A stretch of 23,696 nt of DNA from Candidatus Hadarchaeales archaeon. GTDB lineage: Archaea; Hadarchaeota; Hadarchaeia; Hadarchaeales; WYZ-LMO6. The position numbers and the translations under genes are program-made. The stretch is from contig JAWCKR010000019.1 of assembly GCA_038851755.1 (NCBI GenBank), forward strand, positions 1-23,696, read 5' to 3'. Below, one piece after another: positions 14,189 through 23,696 of this stretch (positions within the stretch are counted from its first letter, which is position 1; every line of letters begins with the position of its first letter). The notes under the pieces are model-generated. The model had not been told where the DNA came from. It saw only the letters and a program-made list of their open reading frames with translations, and ran no database searches.

Positions 14189-14785
14189 TTATCTCTTCGA
14201 GGAGAGGGTGAGTTCACCCCTCGTCCTCTCGATGAGCCCCCTCACCACATCCTGCTTCCTCTTCATTCCCGGCAGGACCGCATCAGGGTAATCGAACTCC
14301 ACTAGGAGTTCGTAGATTTTCTCCATGAGAGAGAAGAGCTCCTCGGCTGGCCTGAATTCCCCCCTTCTGAGGCAATCAAGAACTGCCCTCCTGAGTTCTC
14401 CCGAAGCATCGGCCAGCCCCATGAGGTAGGGCTCGTAGGGCACGCCCACCTCCTCAGGCTCGGGTATCCTCCTCTCCCTCAGAAGGGTCCTCACCAGGAA
14501 GGCCTCCCCGTACTCCTGCTGCGCCGCTCTGACCGTTCCGGAGGCCTGGAGGGAGGGGTCCTCCCCGCACATCGAGAGCATCTCCTCCAAGGTTTTCCTG
14601 GCCTTCTCCATCAGCTCCCCGGCCTGTTTTTCATCCCCCCTGTGGAGGGCGAAGATGGACCTGGCGGAGAGCCTCACCACCTCCCTGGAGAGGTTCAGAA
14701 GTTTCTCCCTCAGCTCCTCCTCCCTGTCGAAGTGCTTTCTCAGCTTCTCCAGCATTTCCTTCTTTATCGGGTGGGGCTCGGACAT
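14189..14785 (-). CDS. Translin/Trax family protein (archaeal C3PO-like RNase)
   Basis: REKLLNLSREVVRLS, QEYGEA and YLMGLADASGELRR (catalytic Glu/Asp motifs), MKRKQD. Confidence 0.9.
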   Translation of the reverse strand: MSEPHPIKKEMLEKLRKHFDREEELREKLLNLSREVVRLSARSIFALHRGDEKQAGELMEKARKTLEEMLSMCGEDPSLQASGTVRAAQQEYGEAFLVRTLLRERRIPEPEEVGVPYEPYLMGLADASGELRRAVLDCLRRGEFRPAEELFSLMEKIYELLVEFDYPDAVLPGMKRKQDVVRGLIERTRGELTLSSKR

Positions 14786-15207
14786 CAGGAGAACTCCTTG
14801 GTGGGCCTCAGGAGGTTAGTCTTGTGGTACCTAAGCTTGAGGATCATGCCCTTCTTCTCCAGGTTGTTCACCAGCGCACTCAGCTTGGCCTTGGAGAGGT
14901 CCATTCTCCTCCTCAGGTCATCCTGCCTTATCTCCTTGCACCTCAGGATTTCCTCAAAAACCCTCCTCTCGTCCTCGCCCAGCCCCATTATGGCGACCTT
15001 CATGGTCCTCTCCTTAGCATACTTTCTGAAGAGAAAAGCCAGTACAGTGGCCATGGATCCGGCCACGGTTACCATGATGCCCACCGCCAGCAGGAGGGAG
15101 GAAACCTCCAGGGATCCCCCCGGAGTGAGGAGAACGAGGACGGTGGCCAGGGTGAGCTGGAGGAAGAGGGTGAGCAGGATGAGGCCCAGCATCTCCTTCA
15201 GCGTCAT
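14785..15207 (-). CDS. Membrane-anchored winged-helix transcriptional regulator (COG2512-like)
   Basis: Two TM segments followed by LGEDERRVF..IRQDDL..LSKAKLSALVNNLEKKGMI..HKTN. ATG at 15207, TTTAAA box ~25 nt upstream, and a TGATG overlap with translin. The track's extension to 15876 is spurious. Confidence 0.85.
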   Translation of the reverse strand: MTLKEMLGLILLTLFLQLTLATVLVLLTPGGSLEVSSLLLAVGIMVTVAGSMATVLAFLFRKYAKERTMKVAIMGLGEDERRVFEEILRCKEIRQDDLRRRMDLSKAKLSALVNNLEKKGMILKLRYHKTNLLRPTKEFS

Positions 15208-15240
15208 CGTAGAAAGAGGGAGGAAGAGTTTAAAAAAATT

Positions 15241-15347
15241 TTGAAGGAGGTAAAAAAGAAGATTCTGAACGGTCAGGAGTTTTAAAAGGGTTCCTTTCCT
15301 GAAAAAAGGCTTTATTTTTCCTCCTTTCAATGCCTGCTTTGACCGTT
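15241..15347. promoter_or_regulatory. Divergent promoter region with two inverted-repeat pairs
   Basis: AACGGTCA (15268-15275) pairs with TGACCGTT (15340-15347). TTGAAGGAGGTAAAAAA (15241-15257) pairs imperfectly with TTATTTTTCCTCCTTTCAA (15312-15330). Confidence 0.45.
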
Positions 15348-15402
15348 TCGGGAGAGTTCTCAAATATCCCTTCCACACATAGAAACCATCGGAGGTGAAA
15401 AG

Positions 15403-16416
15403 ATGGAAAATCGGGGAATAGCGCCCCTGATAGCGGCCGTGGTGCTGGTGGCGGCCTTGGGTACCTCCACAGCGGTTCCCGTAGCCGCCTCGGTGGCCAA
15501 TGTGGACCCCGACCACCCCCTCTACTCCCTGAAGAGGGTAGGGGAGAGGATAAGGGGTCTCAGCGACACGCAACAGATGAAGCTGAGATGGCAGGAATAC
15601 CAGAGAATGGTGGAGAAGGGCAAGGGGCTCCAGTACCAGAAGATCCTGAAGGAGTTCGTGGATAAACTGAACTCGGTGGCGCCCTACGACGTGAAGACCA
15701 GGCAGGAGATCATCTCGTGGATGCAGGAACAGATGCCGGGCATAGGGGAGATCAGGTTGAAGCTGGCGGAGCAGGTTGCCGGGGAAAATGAGGAGTGGGA
15801 GAACGAGGTGCAGCAAATAAGGGCCTGCTGGGAAAGGGAGAAAAACCTGGAGAACCTGAGCGCGGGGATGCTTCATCTCAGGGAAAGGATAAGGGAAAGG
15901 GTCAGGGAGCAGTACCTGAGGATAGAGAACCTGCTGGAGAATGCTTGTCTGAGGATGAGGGTGCAGGAGAACCTAGCTCTAACCTGGCAGGAGGCCCGCC
16001 AGAGGGGAGAGGAGATCCTGCGCACCAGGTTCAGTCACCTGCTGGAGTTCTTTGAAAACAAGTACCCTGAGGTGGAAGCCATGCTGTCCCTGGCCCCCGA
16101 GAACCTGCCCGGGAGAAAGGCGGCGGGGAGGCTGGTGGACCTAGCCCTGAGGGAGAAGGAGCTGGCCCTCCACGCCTACGACGAGAACCTGCTCGGAAGG
16201 GCGGTGGGCATTCTGACCTCGGCGGTAATGCACCTGAGAAACGCGGAGCGAATCCTAGAGCACGCGCAGGAGTGGGAGCCCCAGAACGCCCCCCAGTGGG
16301 AGGAGTGGCGGGAGAGATGGGGAGACCTCAAAGAAGAGTTCAGGGAACTTTGGGAGAACGTACAACAGAACCTTGAGGAGTTCCGGAACAGAATAAGGGA
16401 GAGGTGGGGAGGATAG
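15403..16416 (+). CDS. Surface/secreted helical protein with class III-like signal peptide and DUF5667-like motif
   Basis: N-terminal RG|IAPLIAAVVLVAAL and DPDHPLYSLKRVGERIR (PxxPLYxLKRxxE), followed by coiled-coil. GGAGGTGA RBS. Confidence 0.75.
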   Translation: MENRGIAPLIAAVVLVAALGTSTAVPVAASVANVDPDHPLYSLKRVGERIRGLSDTQQMKLRWQEYQRMVEKGKGLQYQKILKEFVDKLNSVAPYDVKTRQEIISWMQEQMPGIGEIRLKLAEQVAGENEEWENEVQQIRACWEREKNLENLSAGMLHLRERIRERVREQYLRIENLLENACLRMRVQENLALTWQEARQRGEEILRTRFSHLLEFFENKYPEVEAMLSLAPENLPGRKAAGRLVDLALREKELALHAYDENLLGRAVGILTSAVMHLRNAERILEHAQEWEPQNAPQWEEWRERWGDLKEEFRELWENVQQNLEEFRNRIRERWGG

Positions 16417-16430
16417 CCTCTCCCCCCTTT

Positions 16431-17360
16431 TTATTTTTTCATCAGGACCACGGAGCTCACCGGAGCTTCGTCCACGATCCGGTAGCCCGTGAGCCTCTCC
16501 AGTTCTTCCGCGAAAGCCCTTATCTCCTGATGGGTGGGCATGAGGGCCGGTCCCAGCCTCTGCCTGGAGTATCCCACCGGAAAGTATCCCTTGGGCTCCA
16601 CATAGTCCGGTCTGGCCTTCTCCACCAGCCTGGCGTAGCCCTCCGGGTCCTTCAGGTTCAGCTCCTTAACAAGTGTTAGCCTCAGCACCTTCCTGCAGGA
16701 GAAAGAAGGAAGGAGCTCCAGACTGAGGTTCAGCCTCTCCCACCCGTCTGGAATCCTTGGCCTGCACACCTTGGAGTAGGTGGTTTCGTCGGGGGCAGGA
16801 AGAGTGAGGTAGAGCTGGGTGGGCTCCACTCCCAGCTTCTCCAGTCTTTCAGGCATGGTGCCGTTGCTCACGAGAAAGGTGGTGAAGCCCCTTCGATGGA
16901 ACTCCTCCAGCAGGTGATTCAGCGGGAGATAGAGGGTTGGCTCCCCCGCCAAGCTTATGGCGGCATGCCTGGGGTGCTGGGCCTCCTCCCACTTGCGCAA
17001 GTCCACCCCGGGGTTGCCTTTGAAGCCGCTCAAGAGCTCCCTTTGGGCTAAAACGGCTTTCTCCACCACCTCTGAGGGGTCGTCGGGTGGAAGCTCCTCG
17101 TGTGGATCTAGCGTGGCCTCAACCATCCTCCAGCAGAAGAGGCACTGATGGGTGCAGTGGAAGAGAGAAGGGGTGAACTGAAGACAGCGCCAGGAGGAGA
17201 TTCCGTAGAACTTGGACTTGTAGCATTCCCCCTTCCCCAGCAGGCTCTTCCTGGTCCAGAGACATGTTTTCACCGCGGAGTTCTCCCCCACCAGCCTGTA
17301 CCCCTGCTTCTGGTAAAGCTCCCCGAACTGCCTGAGCCTCTCCCGCACGGATCCCTGCAT
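16431..17360 (-). CDS. taw1: 4-demethylwyosine (imG-14) synthase Taw1/TYW1, radical SAM
   Basis: SAVKTCLW, CYKSKFYGISSWRC, CTHQCLFCWR, AISLAGEPT, FLVSNG, VEPKGY..VGYSRQRL. Probable start ATG 17360, a TGATG overlap with the nifB stop (GAGGTG RBS); alternative GTG 17375. Confidence 0.95.
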   Translation of the reverse strand: MQGSVRERLRQFGELYQKQGYRLVGENSAVKTCLWTRKSLLGKGECYKSKFYGISSWRCLQFTPSLFHCTHQCLFCWRMVEATLDPHEELPPDDPSEVVEKAVLAQRELLSGFKGNPGVDLRKWEEAQHPRHAAISLAGEPTLYLPLNHLLEEFHRRGFTTFLVSNGTMPERLEKLGVEPTQLYLTLPAPDETTYSKVCRPRIPDGWERLNLSLELLPSFSCRKVLRLTLVKELNLKDPEGYARLVEKARPDYVEPKGYFPVGYSRQRLGPALMPTHQEIRAFAEELERLTGYRIVDEAPVSSVVLMKK

Positions 17361-18220
17361 CACCTCATGTAGCACTTGAGGTCTTTTCCCAGTTTTCCCA
17401 CCGCGTCAGCCCTGCACTGCCTGCAGTGGGTCATCTGGTCGATGTATCTGGAGCAGAGACGCTGTAGCCTGACCTTTTCCTGGAGTGAGGGAGGGGGAAG
17501 GTGTGAGAATCTGAACTGGGGGATGAGGGGGATAAGGTTCTGCTTGTACACACCCAGTTTTCCTATCCTCCTGGCCACCTCCACCACGTGTCTGTCGTTC
17601 ACCGTGGGAATGATCACCGTGTTCACCTTCACCACGATTCCCCTCTTCACGGCCTCCTCCACACCCCTGAGCTGGTTCCCTATGAGGAGCTTGGCCCCTT
17701 CCTCCCCCTGGTACTTCTTCCCCCCGTAGAGCACCCAAGAGTAAATCTTCTTTCCCACCCTAGGATCCACGGCGTTGATGGTCACCGTGAGGGTTCCTAT
17801 CCCCAACTCCACCAGATCCCCCATCCTGTCGGGCAGGAGGAGGCCGTTGGTGCTGAGGCAACGGTGCAAACGTGGGAACCTCTTCCTGACTAGACTGAAG
17901 GTCTCGAAGGTCTCCTCGTTGAAAAGGGGTTCTCCCGGCCCGGCCACGGCCACCACCTTTATCCAGGGATGTCTCTTCACCACCTCCTCCAGCCTGCGGA
18001 GGGCCTGTTTGGGGGTGAGCACCCTGCTGGTCACCCCTGGTCTGGACTCGTTGACGCAGTCGAACCTCCTCACGCAGTAGTTGCACTGGATGTTGCACTT
18101 GGGGGCCACGGGGAGGTGCACCCTGCCAAAGAGGTGGAGGGCCTCCCTGCTGAAGCAGGGATGCTCTCTTATTCTGCGCAGCTGGGAGGGATCCCAGGCT
18201 GCTTTCCCCTTCCCACCCAT
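17360..18220 (-). CDS. nifB: Stand-alone radical SAM NifB (FeMo-cofactor NifB-co biosynthesis family)
   Basis: All NifB fingerprints are present: HPC, HLPVAPKCNIQCNYC, NESRPG, AGPG, TVTIN and CRQCRADA. No NifX-like domain. Confidence 0.9.
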   Translation of the reverse strand: MGGKGKAAWDPSQLRRIREHPCFSREALHLFGRVHLPVAPKCNIQCNYCVRRFDCVNESRPGVTSRVLTPKQALRRLEEVVKRHPWIKVVAVAGPGEPLFNEETFETFSLVRKRFPRLHRCLSTNGLLLPDRMGDLVELGIGTLTVTINAVDPRVGKKIYSWVLYGGKKYQGEEGAKLLIGNQLRGVEEAVKRGIVVKVNTVIIPTVNDRHVVEVARRIGKLGVYKQNLIPLIPQFRFSHLPPPSLQEKVRLQRLCSRYIDQMTHCRQCRADAVGKLGKDLKCYMR

Positions 18221-18272
18221 CCCCCTCCTTCCATCTTCCCCCTATTTAGCTTTCCCAGACCACGGAGTAGGA

Positions 18273-19115
18273 ATGGGGGGCCTGAGGAGAGAACTCGAGG
18301 GGATTCTGACGGAAGAGGAGCTGGCGAAGCTGAGGGCCTTCGACCTGGTGGGGGACATAGGGGTGCTGAGGTTACCTCCGGAGCTCCTCCCCAAGAAACG
18401 TGAAATAGGGGAAGCCCTTCTGAGGGTCCACCGCCACCTAAGAACGGTACTTCTCCAGGTTTCCCCCGTGAAGGGGGAGTTCAGGACCAGGAGACTGGAG
18501 GTGGTGGCTGGGGAGCCCAGGACGGAGACCCTGCACAGGGAGAGCGGCTGTATGTTCAAAGTGGACCTGGACAAGGTTTACTTCTCCCCCAGGCTGGCCT
18601 ACGAGAGGATGAGGATAGCCAAGCAGGTGAGGGAGGGGGAAGAGGTGACCAACCTTTTCGCAGGGGTGGGGTGTTACTCCATCGTGATAGCGAGGCACTC
18701 AGGGGCAAGCAGGGTGTACTCCGTGGACAAGAATCCAGAGGCCTTCAGGCTCATGTGCGAGAACATCCGTCTGAACAGGGTGGGGGAGAGGGTCATTCCC
18801 TTCCTGGGGGACGCGAGGGAGGTGGTCTCCTCCCAGCTTCGGAGGAGGGCCGACAGGGTGCTCATGCCCCTCCCGGAGGCGGCCAGACAGTTCGTGGGCA
18901 CGGCCCTGGAGGCCCTGAAGGAAGAGGGAGGGATCGTGCACTTCTACGATGTGGGGGAGGAGCCTGACCCCTTCTCGCCCTCGATCAGTTTCTTGAAAAG
19001 AGAGGTGGAGAGGCAGGGGTGGAAGCTGGAGGTGCTGGACAAGCGCCTCATAAGGTCGTACGGGGTGAGGCTGTATCACCTGGTTCTGGACCTCCTCCTC
19101 CGCCCGAAAGGATAA
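18273..19115 (+). CDS. Trm5/Taw2 (Met-10+) family tRNA-37 SAM-dependent transferase, Trm5a/Taw21-like, lacking the D1 domain
   Basis: FDLVGDIG, GEFRTR, HRESGC.FKVD..KVYFSPRLAYER, FAGVG, DKNP and DRVLMPLP. About 280 aa from ATG 18273. Confidence 0.85.
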   Translation: MGGLRRELEGILTEEELAKLRAFDLVGDIGVLRLPPELLPKKREIGEALLRVHRHLRTVLLQVSPVKGEFRTRRLEVVAGEPRTETLHRESGCMFKVDLDKVYFSPRLAYERMRIAKQVREGEEVTNLFAGVGCYSIVIARHSGASRVYSVDKNPEAFRLMCENIRLNRVGERVIPFLGDAREVVSSQLRRRADRVLMPLPEAARQFVGTALEALKEEGGIVHFYDVGEEPDPFSPSISFLKREVERQGWKLEVLDKRLIRSYGVRLYHLVLDLLLRPKG

Positions 19116-19135
19116 AAATTGACCTTTTTTGTGTA

Positions 19136-19151
19136 AAAAGAAGGTTAATAA
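19136..19151 (+). promoter_or_regulatory. BRE-TATA promoter of the canonical histone
   Basis: AAAAGAAGG-TTAATAA, about 30 nt before ATG 19181. Confidence 0.6.
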
Positions 19152-19180
19152 AGGGAAAAACGGAAAAATAAACGGTGCAT

Positions 19181-19384
19181 ATGGAGATTCCACTGGCCAC
19201 GGCTGACAGGCTGATAAGGAAGGCCGGGGCGAAGAGGGTAAGCGAAGACGCCGCCAAGGCGCTGGCGGAGGTGCTGGAGGAATACGCCATCTCCGTGGCT
19301 TCCGAGGCCGTCAAGCTGGCGGAGCATGCGGGCAGGAGGACCGTGCGGGACGAGGATGTGCGCCTGGCGAGCAGACGCACCTAG
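19181..19384 (+). CDS. Canonical archaeal histone (HMf family)
   Basis: MEIPLATADRLIRKAGAKRVSEDAAKALAEVLEEYAISVASEAVKLAEHAGRRTVRDEDVRLA, with H49, R52 and D59 equivalents intact. Confidence 0.96.
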   Translation: MEIPLATADRLIRKAGAKRVSEDAAKALAEVLEEYAISVASEAVKLAEHAGRRTVRDEDVRLASRRT

Positions 19385-19794
19385 TCTTCCCACTTCCTGG
19401 CAAGTTTTCTCTTGAGCAACTCCTCCCCTAAATCCACCCACTCCTCCCCCCTTCGGAGGTAAACACGCGCCAGGAGTCTCCCATAGGGGTCTCTTTCACC
19501 GTCCATCTCGCAGCGAATCCTCTCCCCGGGAGGGCAGAGGGAGTCCACGAAGACTTTGGCGAGAACTCCCCTGGCCTCGGAAAGCTCGAAGGCGTCCACC
19601 CCGGCCAGTCGGAGCTTCTCCACCCTCCCCACCTCCGGCCAGCCAAGGCTCTCCAAAATCCTGACCTCTATCGTGTCTCCGTCGACCACCCTGAGCACCT
19701 CGGCGGAGAAGTGGATGGTGTGCCCATTTTCCCTTGAGGGAAGAAAGAGGAGGAGGAAGAGGGAGAGAACGGCCAGAAGCGGCCATACCTTCAT
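19381..19794 (-). CDS. Thermonuclease (SNase) family protein with signal anchor
   Basis: VVDGDTIEV, LRLAGVDAFE and RDPYGRLLARVY, with a hydrophobic N-terminus. Confidence 0.9.
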   Translation of the reverse strand: MKVWPLLAVLSLFLLLFLPSRENGHTIHFSAEVLRVVDGDTIEVRILESLGWPEVGRVEKLRLAGVDAFELSEARGVLAKVFVDSLCPPGERIRCEMDGERDPYGRLLARVYLRRGEEWVDLGEELLKRKLARKWED

Positions 19795-21015: not shown

Positions 21016-22017
21016 ATGCGCAAAACTCCTTACTTCAAGGAGAAACTTGAGACGATAGAGGTAAGGAAGAAGAGCCTCTCCCAGCTGCTCCAGGAGATGG
21101 CCAAAACGGGCTTCCAGGGGAGGAAGCTGGGCGAGGCCGCTGCCCTTTGGGAGGAGATGCTGGGCATGAAGGATATGGCCATCTTCTTCGGATACACAGG
21201 TTCCATGAGCACCACGGGCATGTGGAAGATCGTGTGCTGGCTGATAGAGAAGAGATACATAGATGTTCTCGTCTCCACCGGAGCCAACATCTCCGAGGAT
21301 ATCCTGGAGGCTATGGGGGGGACCTACTGGAGGGGGACGGATTTCGTGGACGATGCTGACCTCCTGAAGCACAAGATAGACAGGTTTTACGACGTGTACG
21401 CGGACGAGCTGGAGTACAGGAAGATGGAGGGATTGATCACCGAGTTCATGGAAACGCTGGAGGAGGGTCGCCCCTACTCCTCCAGGGAGTTCCTGTGGGA
21501 GTTCGGGAAGTGGTTGAACAAGAAGGGAATAAACTGCATCGTCTCCACCGCCTACAGGAAGAAGGTACCCATCTTCTGCCCAGCCATCATAGACAGCGGT
21601 TACGGGATAGCTTATCTCCAGGCGAAGAAGAAGGTTTGTCTGGACCAGGGGAGGGACTTCGCTGAGCTGCTCGAGATGGGCAAGAGGCTGGGGCAGAGGG
21701 GTGTAATCTATATCGGGGGCGGTGTTCCCAAGGATTTCGTTCAGCTCCTCGCGGTGGCGATTGACCTCCTCAGGGGAGGGGAGGACCCATACCCTCACGA
21801 CTACGCCATCCAGATCACCACCGACCAGCCCGTCTGGGGGGGGCTGAGCGGGTGCACGCTCAAGGAGGCCATAAGCTGGGGTAAGATTTCTCCCCAAGGC
21901 AAGAATGTGACTTGCTACTGCGACGCCACCATCGCCCTTCCCCTGCTCTCCCACTACCTCAACGAGAGGGTGAAGAGCAGGAAGAGCTACCCAGATTTCT
22001 CCTGGCTCCTGAAGTAA
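21016..22017 (+). CDS. dys: Deoxyhypusine synthase family protein
   Basis: [60 protein letters not shown] (active Lys) and CDATIALP. Start set at ATG 21016. Confidence 0.92.
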
Positions 22018-22049
22018 GGGTTTTATCCCTGGAAAGGCAAAGAAAGAAA

Positions 22050-23696
22050 GTGCCAGAAAGAGAACTGAAGCTTACCGTGGCTGAGAACTCCCACCAGCCA
22101 GACGTGGGGAGGGGTCTGGCTCGTATCCCCGACCACGCCGCCGAGAGGCTGGGGATAAGCCCAGGGGATGTGGTGGAGGTCCAGGGGACCAAGGTCACGG
22201 GAGTGATAGCCATGAAAGGGTTCTCCGAGGACAGGGGACTCGATATCATAAGGATAGACGGGATCATCAGGCACAACGCCGGGACCTCCATAGGTGAGAA
22301 GGTCCTGGTGAGGAAGGCCGAGGTGAAGGAGGCCAAAAAGGTCTCCTTGGCACCAGCCAGCCCAGGCATAAGGATTTCCGTCCCCGGGGAGGTGATGAGG
22401 CGCAACCTGCTCGGGAGACCCCTCACCAGGGGAGACCTCATCACCACGGCCTCCCTGAGGAGGGGCTTCGGGGAGCCCTTCATCGAGCAGATCTTCGGTT
22501 CCTTCCTGGAGGAGACCCCGCTGGGCCTGGGGGAGATGAGGTTCATCGTGGTCTCCACGGTTCCCCCGGGGATCGTGCTGGTGGTGGACTCCACCGAGAT
22601 AGAGGTGCTTCCCGAGGCCGTGGCGGTGAAGGAGACCAAGGTCCCGGCCGTGACCTACGAGGACATCGGTGGGCTGAAGGAGGAGCTGAAGAGGGTGAGG
22701 GAGATGATCGAGCTTCCCCTGAAGCACCCGGAGCTCTTCGACCGGTTGGGCATAGAGCCCCCCAAGGGGGTGCTGCTCTACGGCCCGCCAGGGACGGGAA
22801 AGACCCTGATAGCGAAGGCGGTGGCCAACGAGTCGGGAGCCAACTTCGTTTCCATCAACGGGCCTGAGGTGATGTGCGTGGATGGTGAGACCCCCATTCT
22901 CTGGGAGGGAGAGGTGAGGCGGGTGGCAGAGGTGTTTGAAACCGCCAGGGGGGAGGAGAGAGGAAGGGGCCAGAACCACCTCTCCTTCACCGCGAGCGGT
23001 TCGGTGAAGGGTGTGAGGAACCCCTCCTTCTCCGTCACGGATGTGGGGCTTACGGAACTGACGGAGGTCAGGGTTCCCTTTTACTACGAGCTGAAGCTGG
23101 GCACCACGGTTTACAGGGTCTCCTCGAACCATCCCCTTCTGAGCCTCCGCGGGGGTGAGATAAGGTGGTCGACCCCCCCGGAGCTGAGGCCCGGAGACCA
23201 CGTTCTCGTTTCGGTGCTCTCCGAGCTGAAACAACCGAGCATCGATTTCGAGGGAGAGGGAATAAAGGTCCCGGGGCGCTTCAGCAAGGAACTGGCTTTC
23301 CTGCTCGGGCTCATAGCAGGAGACGGCCACGTGGGACACGACAACGTCACCTTCGCGGGGAAAGAAAGGAGCCTGCACTCAAAGTTCAGGGAGATGGTGA
23401 GGAGGATTTTCGGAATAACCAGGTGCAGGAGCTACGGGGGGGAGGTGCCCAGGACCACCATCTACTCCACTGAGCTGGTACGTTTCCTGAACTACCTGGG
23501 ATTCAAATCCGGGAGGAAGGATTACCACGAGTTTCTGGGGAGGTGGTTACCCTCCTTTGACCAAGAGCTCTTGGTTTCCTTCCTCTTGGGACTCCTCCTG
23601 ACGGACGGCACCAGGAATAGGTATTCGCTGGTGATTTACAGTTCCGACAGGGAAGCGCTGGAGAGGCTCAAAGCAGTTTCCCTGTCCAGGGGCTTC
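22050..23696 (+). CDS. cdc48: CDC48/VCP-family AAA+ ATPase, intein-containing (3'-truncated by window)
   Basis: Absent from the ORF track because there is no stop in the window. Hand translation from GTG 22050 gives [95 protein letters not shown]. Confidence 0.95.
22875..23696 (+). mobile_element. Intein with LAGLIDADG homing endonuclease, in the CDC48 D1 domain
   Basis: The in-frame insert starts CVDGETPI (block A), followed by [10 protein letters not shown] (block B), ELRPGD, and LAGLIDADG motifs LLGLIAGDG (23301-23327) and LLGLLLTDG (23583-23609). The C-terminal splice junction lies outside the window. Confidence 0.93.

Follow-up and report, generated by a model that had tools for sequence, protein, structure and literature searches.

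A minimal NifB encoded beside taw1 in a Hadarchaeon without detected nitrogenase genes most likely serves activation of a methyl/alkyl-coenzyme M reductase

A 23,696-nucleotide stretch of DNA from a Candidatus Hadarchaeales archaeon (assembly GCA_038851755.1, contig JAWCKR010000019.1, forward strand; hereafter, the window) encodes NifB, a radical S-adenosylmethionine (SAM) enzyme, at positions 17360..18220 on the minus strand. The nifB gene is followed on the same strand by taw1, encoding 4-demethylwyosine synthase (TYW1; 16431..17375), and is separated by a 52-bp spacer (18221..18272) from a divergently oriented gene for a Trm5/Taw2-family tRNA methyltransferase (18273..19115, plus strand). 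The window is the entire contig C19 of a 1.25-Mb genome that is 93% complete and assembled in 26 contigs. NifB homologues with 85% identity are filed in public sources under Hadesarchaea or Hadarchaeales. Sequencing runs containing the stretch are labelled as hot springs metagenome. Contigs of runs X1 and X2, labelled metatranscriptomic and flagged as probably DNA, span positions 16271-19400 at ~99% identity, which speaks to presence only. In the raw RNA run X3, no reads fell on the stretch among ~12% of the run, which says nothing about expression either way.

The nifB gene encodes a protein of 286 aa, and its assignment was based on the NCBIfam model TIGR01290, sequence motifs, and matches to structures in the PDB. 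The whole-protein profile score against TIGR01290 was 355.6 bits (cut-off, 343.65), and a genome-level search with the same model returned this protein (353.8 bits) as the single NifB copy in the genome. Positions 5-279 of the 441-position model were covered and positions 280-441 were unmatched, indicating that the protein lacks a NifX domain and is the minimal, radical-SAM-only form found in archaea. An earlier note on this DNA, made from the letters of the sequence, had described a NifB with every diagnostic motif, and all six were located here: HPC at residue 20, CNIQCNYC at 42, ESRP at 58, AGPG at 93, TVTIN at 145, and CRQCRADA at 266. The protein carries the radical SAM CxxxCxxC motif together with candidate Cys and His ligands (H20, C22, H35, C121, C266, and C269) for two further [4Fe-4S] clusters (K1 and K2). 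Nine Cys and His residues (H20, C22, H35, C42, C46, C49, C121, C266, and C269) are identical in PDB entries 6y1x, which matched at 413.9 bits and ~68% identity, and 7bi7, which represents M. thermautotrophicus NifB (7bi7/7jma, 280 bits, ~50% identity). Their number and kind fit the ligand sets given by Saini et al. (bioRxiv 10.1101/2023.10.20.563283). Wherever the gene was assembled whole, its frame is uninterrupted. The ratio of nonsynonymous to synonymous substitution rates (dN/dS) is 0.06-0.21 within the genus, and synonymous sites are saturated in comparison with G005, a member of the same family from a sister genus. The gene is a genuine NifB under constraint, and it is predicted to encode a working archaeal NifB that synthesizes the [8Fe-9S-C] cluster (NifB-co, or L-cluster).

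The classical expectation that NifB occurs alongside nitrogenase, which does not define archaeal NifB, does not hold in this genome. A Pfam scan of the 25 open reading frames (ORFs) of the window identified no member of the NifH, D, K, E, N, or X families, in agreement with the earlier note. That note had also raised a possible nitrogenase-independent role for the protein and had named a whole-genome search for nif genes as a check on it, and the genome-wide results favor such a role. The 93%-complete genome has no match to PF00148, the family of NifD/K/E/N, CfbD, and their relatives. With PF00142 (NifH), it yielded only weak P-loop matches of 19-29 bits, the best of which (28.6 bits) covered model positions 6-59, and there was no true NifH. 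PF00148 matches were likewise absent from five of the six genomes of the family, including G002, which is 95% complete in four contigs. The sole match in the family, in genome G003, is CfbD and lies inside a cluster of genes for coenzyme F430. The Hadarchaeal protein shares its radical SAM core and motifs with the bacterial NifB-NifX fusions of nif operons, but unlike these it has no NifX domain, no nif neighbors, and no nitrogenase in its genome.

Genes for methyl-coenzyme M reductase (MCR) are present in the same genome. There are two mcrA genes, one in an mcrA-(ORF)-mcrB-mcrG operon on contig C12 and a second that is truncated at the edge of contig C20. The McrA and McrB encoded on C12 scored 514.6 bits (cut-off, 767.75) and 405.8 bits (cut-off, 516.25). 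Since both fall below the equivalog cut-offs, the enzyme appears to be a divergent, Acr-like one, probably an alkyl-coenzyme M reductase. The ORF between mcrA and mcrB (L121 7589-8200, G000:C12) encodes 203 aa and has no NCBIfam match.

In Methanococcus maripaludis, the MCR activation complex consists of McrC, Mmp7, Mmp17, Mmp3, and A2, and McrC (H49/H118 and C12/C55) and Mmp7 (H84/C143, with C90 nearby) between them bind three [8Fe-9S-C] L-cluster-like cofactors, as described in PMC12176620. All of these components are encoded by the Hadarchaeal genome. Positions 43311-51700 of contig C2 carry, in order, genes for the MCR Gln C-methyltransferase, Mmp3, Mmp6, Mmp5, Mmp15, Mmp17, Mmp7, McrD, McrC, and Mmp8, and A2 is encoded 11 kb upstream of this mmp cluster (C2:30868-32451; 646.8 bits; cut-off, 517.1). 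A2, McrC, Mmp7, Mmp17, and Mmp3 each scored above their cut-offs, so that with MCR itself the full activation set is encoded. To examine the cluster ligands, Mmp7 was aligned to PDB chain 8s7v_H and McrC to 8s7v_I, the numbering of the latter being corrected for its 36-residue tag, and the residues listed in section 8 of PMC12176620 were inspected. All seven L-cluster ligands are kept in the Hadarchaeal proteins (C12, H49, C55, and H118 of McrC; H84, C90, and C143 of Mmp7).

Distribution of these genes was analyzed across a sample of 41 genomes of the order, comprising the six genomes of the family to which the window belongs (f1) and 35 genomes of other families. NifB and Mmp7 were each present in all six f1 genomes and in none of the other 35, in which searches for NifB returned only MoaA-like matches below 38 bits. 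McrA followed the same pattern, being found in four of the six and in none of the 35. Across the phylum (66 genomes), NifB was detected in seven genomes, namely the six of f1 and G051, which belongs to another family; mcrA was found in five of these seven, including G051. Every NifB-bearing Hadarchaeon that is at least 88% complete has Mmp7. As the six f1 genomes are kin, they count as approximately one evolutionary event, with G051 as a second. The NifB of G051 (G051:C74:1163-2035, L165; L164 is G051:C33) shows 74% identity and lies on a contig with a G+C content of 49%.

We propose that this NifB most likely makes Fe-S-carbide clusters for the MCR/Acr activation complex, and we place the probability that the gene encodes a working NifB with this client at roughly 0.77. 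The analysis shows that the protein is a NifB, that nitrogenase-type genes are missing, that MCR and its activation genes are encoded with their cluster ligands conserved, and that these genes co-occur across genomes. NifB would fuse two [4Fe-4S] clusters and insert a SAM-derived carbide, generating the [8Fe-9S-C] L-cluster. Its client would be the ATP-driven methyl/alkyl-coenzyme M reductase activation complex (A2, McrC, Mmp7, Mmp17, and Mmp3) and not nitrogenase, and McrC and Mmp7 would hold three L-clusters that relay low-potential electrons to F430. Acquisition of the gene probably accompanied, or served, the Acr-like MCR metabolism of this hot-spring Hadarchaeon. The two-gene nifB-taw1 operon, found only in this family, would then reflect compact-genome packing and not a shared function.

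The earlier note assumed that nitrogenase is the only established client of NifB, a premise that is now outdated (bioRxiv 10.1101/2023.10.20.563283; PMC13474568). According to the first of these sources, Methanothrix thermoacetophila has no nitrogenase, its NifB makes [8Fe-9S-C] in vivo and sustains viability as well as diazotrophy in Methanosarcina acetivorans, and NifB occurs in 245 of 245 methanogen proteomes as well as in methanotroph and alkanotroph species. According to the second, many methanogens and alkane oxidizers keep nifB without nitrogenase, and archaeal nifB generally lies apart from nif clusters. An essential role of NifB in methanogens that lack nitrogenase, and its probable supply of [8Fe-9S-C] clusters to MCR activation, have already been published. 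Among the roles that the earlier note considered, a cofactor for an unknown enzyme came closest; the enzyme would be a known one, the MCR activation complex (PMC12176620), and it is encoded here. Literature searches turned up no paper that assigns a Hadarchaeotal NifB a role in MCR activation, although supplementary tables of Saini et al. or the trees of PMC12176620 may list Hadarchaeal NifB sequences. The text of a paper on a Hadarchaeon culture (PMC10811742) contains none of the terms "nifB," "F430," or "McrC," and neither "nifB" nor "F430" occurs in PMC6783470.

As in M. thermoacetophila (NifB structure 6y1x, ~68% identity), a minimal single-domain NifB with conserved cluster-ligand positions occurs in a host without nitrogenase; the present gene comes from a Hadarchaeon whose MCR is divergent and Acr-like, not from a Halobacteriota methanogen, and it forms an operon with taw1. 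The Hadarchaeal system shares with the M. maripaludis activation system (8s7v/8s7x/9h1l), for which NifB is the presumed supplier, all five components and the seven L-cluster ligands. In contrast to that system, McrA and McrB here score below the equivalog cut-offs, and the enzyme to be activated is probably an alkyl-coenzyme M reductase. Methanothermobacter marburgensis likewise has a co-linear mmp cluster and NifB in one genome, but there the mmp cluster is followed by nifB (PMC12176620), whereas here nifB lies on another contig, adjoining taw1.

Several observations weigh against a role of this NifB in MCR activation. In the genome of the window, nifB is near neither the mcr nor the mmp genes. 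Mmp7 and McrC were not detected in G051, which is 79% complete in ~200 contigs, and this counter-evidence is weak but real; the genes may fall in a gap, or the genome may be a weak exception. Searches for mcrA had no match in two of the six family genomes, G001 and G003, both of which have Mmp7. Delivery of the NifB product to McrC and Mmp7 would be required by our proposal, and published papers describe it only as probable; PMC12176620, in which the link from NifB to MCR is termed "probable," itself considers the carbide assignment to be in need of further validation. Finally, the nifB-taw1 overlap described below is conserved even between genomes so diverged that their synonymous sites are saturated, and a sceptic could take this as a sign of selected linkage.

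The affinity of the protein was examined in a tree that combined the NifB sequences of the 80 loci of highest similarity with four from the family (84 in total), built by a quick method with only the Shimodaira-Hasegawa-like approximate likelihood ratio test (SH-aLRT) for support and with midpoint rooting. The family NifB forms a clade (SH-aLRT 99) inside a group of 25 sequences (SH-aLRT 93) that comprises Methanophagales (ANME-1), Argoarchaeum/GoM-Arc1, and related bins. Because sampling favored the nearest sequences and the tree has only a midpoint root, we claim an affinity with this group and neither a donor nor a direction of transfer. Two of five checked genomes of the 25-sequence group, one of them the ANME-1 bin behind L044, had a single PF00148 match, which was CfbD-like, so that they too appear to have NifB without NifDK. 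Archaeal-type NifB sequences were also found on contigs filed as Nitrosotalea sp. (L037, 67% identity) and as a Dehalococcoidia bacterium (L053, 59% identity), probably as a result of mis-binning or of transfer.

At the junction of the two genes, the minus strand reads ...ATG AGG TGA TGC AGG..., and GAGGTGATG is present. The TGA stop codon of nifB and the ATG of taw1 have one base in common (TGATG), with GAGG directly before it and GAGGTGA upstream; the fusion of nifB stop and taw1 start that the earlier note reported is therefore seen. An ORF finder gave an alternative taw1 start, a GTG at 17375, upstream of the ATG at 17360. The ATG is the likelier start, because alignments with relatives begin only at residues 4 to 12. 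Taw1 matches TIGR03972, PF08608, and PF04055, scores 393.2 bits against the first (cut-off, 317.95), and contains the Cys triads C38/C51/C64 and C74/C78/C81. In L128, L129, and L130 (genomes G015, G009, and G012, family f5), the frames that contain Taw1 span 566-608 aa, roughly double the usual length, which suggests fusion with another domain.

Could NifB serve something other than MCR activation? Supply of the L-cluster to a different client, instead of or besides the activation complex, is the least improbable of the alternatives, though we consider it unlikely. It would accommodate G051, with NifB and no detected Mmp7 or McrC, as well as the cautious wording of the published link, and a small NifX-like protein (PF02579) adjoins a flavodoxin in the genome of the window. 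Against it stands the presence of Mmp7 in all of the more complete NifB-bearing genomes. The NifX-like protein was ruled out as a NifB-linked carrier, since such genes do not correlate with NifB (three of six in f1 versus 22 of 35 in the other families of the order), and the same lack of correlation is reported by Saini et al. (bioRxiv 10.1101/2023.10.20.563283). A nitrogenase or a Mar/nitrogen fixation-like operon could instead be hidden in the 7% of the genome that is unassembled, given that gene islands of odd composition are often lost in binning and that G003 carries such an island. We regard this as highly improbable, because PF00148 is missing from five of the six family genomes, the single match is the CfbD of an F430 cluster, and the best PF00142 match in the genome is a P-loop fragment. 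Least probable of all is that nifB is a functionless passenger of horizontal transfer. The grouping of the family NifB with ANME-1- and GoM-Arc1-type sequences would be compatible with transfer, but the intact frames, the retention of all motifs, and the low dN/dS, with synonymous sites saturated relative to G005, argue for a gene maintained by selection.

The remaining alternative starts from the position of the gene. NifB could work with Taw1, supplying or repairing its Fe-S clusters or performing a radical step in wyosine formation, with the overlap coupling the two genes. Besides the TGATG overlap and the GAGGTGA upstream of it, this idea draws on the order nifB-taw1 in all six family genomes, including G005 at 71% NifB identity, and on the Trm5-family gene that lies divergently upstream within the genus. 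The distribution of the genes speaks against it: Taw1 is present in 39 of the 41 genomes of the order (all six of f1 and 33 of the other 35), and 33 of these lack NifB. The protein also scores as an ordinary TYW1 equivalog with the ordinary two Cys triads. Adjacency, a check named in the earlier note, held throughout the family and failed beyond it: of the 80 NifB loci with the highest similarity in a species-representative genome collection, the one Hadarchaeal locus has taw1 beside nifB and the 79 other archaeal loci do not (some being too short to show it), and taw1 was absent from the 4.4-kb nifB contig of G051. The six conserved cases belong to one family and so to one evolutionary event, and in G005 an AmmeMemoRadiSam radical SAM gene (L163 2563-3615, G005:C20) intervenes between nifB and trm5. 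The link to Taw1 and tRNA modification put forward in the earlier note is thus not supported, and we judge it very unlikely. Equally slight, in our estimate, is the chance that the coupling is selected and reflects a second, tRNA-linked job of NifB or a dependence of Taw1 on it (through supply, repair, or a shared reductant) besides MCR activation.

Most simply, the position of nifB beside taw1 is lineage-specific operon packing. None of 25 taw1 loci from NifB-less relatives has a Trm5-like gene within 1.5 kb of taw1, and the "wyosine locus" is therefore a feature of this family; insertion of nifB into an older trm5-taw1 pair was rejected on the same evidence. In a survey of 801 ORFs within 5 kb on either side of nifB at the 80 loci, 56 representatives of clusters with at least three members were scanned against Pfam. 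The neighbors in these clusters were varied housekeeping and oxidative-stress genes, with no nifHDK or mmp genes among them; a further 376 clusters had fewer than three members. Since neighbors vary and archaeal nifB generally lies away from nif clusters, as PMC13474568 describes, genomic position says little about the function of archaeal nifB.

On the other side of nifB, the 52-bp spacer contains one TATA-like box, TATTTAG (18243-18249), situated ~23 bp from both the nifB ATG and the ATG of the Trm5-family gene. The block TTTAGC, at this box, is the sole invariant part of the spacer across four genomes of the genus (G000, which is the genome of the window, G001, G002, and G004), and TATTTAG may serve both genes as a shared TATA box and promoter. 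The divergent gene starts with an ATG at 18273 and encodes a protein of 280 aa that matches PF02475 (180.6 bits) and PF25133 (69.8 bits). Its NCBIfam scores are all below the cut-offs: 254.8 bits for Trm5b (cut-off, 600), 159.1 for Taw21, 155.5 for Taw22, and 150.8 for Taw2. It is nearest Trm5b, the m1G37 enzyme, without the first 80 positions of that model. Of the earlier description of a 52-bp divergent promoter shared with a Trm5a/Taw21-like gene, the length and the divergence stand, whereas the subfamily does not, as Trm5b outscores Taw21. A Trm5-family paralogue on contig C2 is nearest Taw2 (211.7 bits), and a search of the genome for TYW3 did not find it.

The other genes of the window are housekeeping genes, among them a pyr operon, pantothenate genes, and genes for EF-1alpha, a GatA-type amidase, a histone, deoxyhypusine synthase, and CDC48. 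The CDC48/AAA ATPase gene (21912-23696, plus strand) runs off the contig end, and a LAGLIDADG-type domain that splits it (PF14528, residues 460-530) points to an intein. At positions 15437-15984, the summed depth of contigs from runs X1 and X2, many of them 60-base contigs, is ~100-180 times that over nifB and taw1. This region falls in the overlap of two candidate ORFs, one at 15403-16416 (plus strand; 337 aa) without a family match and one at 14785-15876 (minus strand) with a DUF7343/Lrs14-like helix-turn-helix domain at its C-terminus. The high depth could represent a very abundant transcript or a sequence common to many strains.

Genome G003, the sole family member with a PF00148 match, contains an 11.7-kb island (G003:C15:5631-17306, L161) that adjoins tRNA-Arg(gcg) and has a G+C content of 52-55%, compared with 62-65% in its flanks. 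Its genes (sirC, cfbB, cfbC, cfbD, cfbE, cfbA, hemD, cobA, hemC, hemL, hemB, and hemA) make up a complete pathway from glutamyl-tRNA to F430, which within the genus is confined to this genome. The flanks align to C8:54817-49143 and C8:49131-46416 in the genome of the window, where the site is contiguous and empty (G000:C8:49131-49143). A tblastn search of that genome with the 12 island proteins found only aminotransferase paralogues of HemL, and HemB was absent from each of the four other family genomes. By these searches, five of the six family genomes lack tetrapyrrole and F430 genes even though MCR-activation genes are encoded. Two readings are open: most members of this MCR-bearing family may depend on imported tetrapyrroles or F430 for want of a pathway of their own, or binning may regularly drop the island. 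The contrast between five genomes without the pathway and one with all of it may interest researchers of alkane-oxidizing archaea more than the nifB finding itself.

The earlier note offered the locus as a candidate for an undescribed system. A role of the kind proposed here had already been put forward in papers of 2023-2026, and as that work explains our findings, no new system is opened by them. They lend the proposed connection of NifB with MCR activation independent comparative backing from a group other than the classical methanogens. Hadarchaeota offer a natural comparison within one phylum, in which NifB occurs in seven of 66 genomes, mcrA was found in five of those seven, and nitrogenase-type genes are absent from the seven. 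Their small thermophilic set of NifB, McrC, and Mmp7 could be used for testing whether NifB provides the clusters with which MCR-type enzymes are activated.

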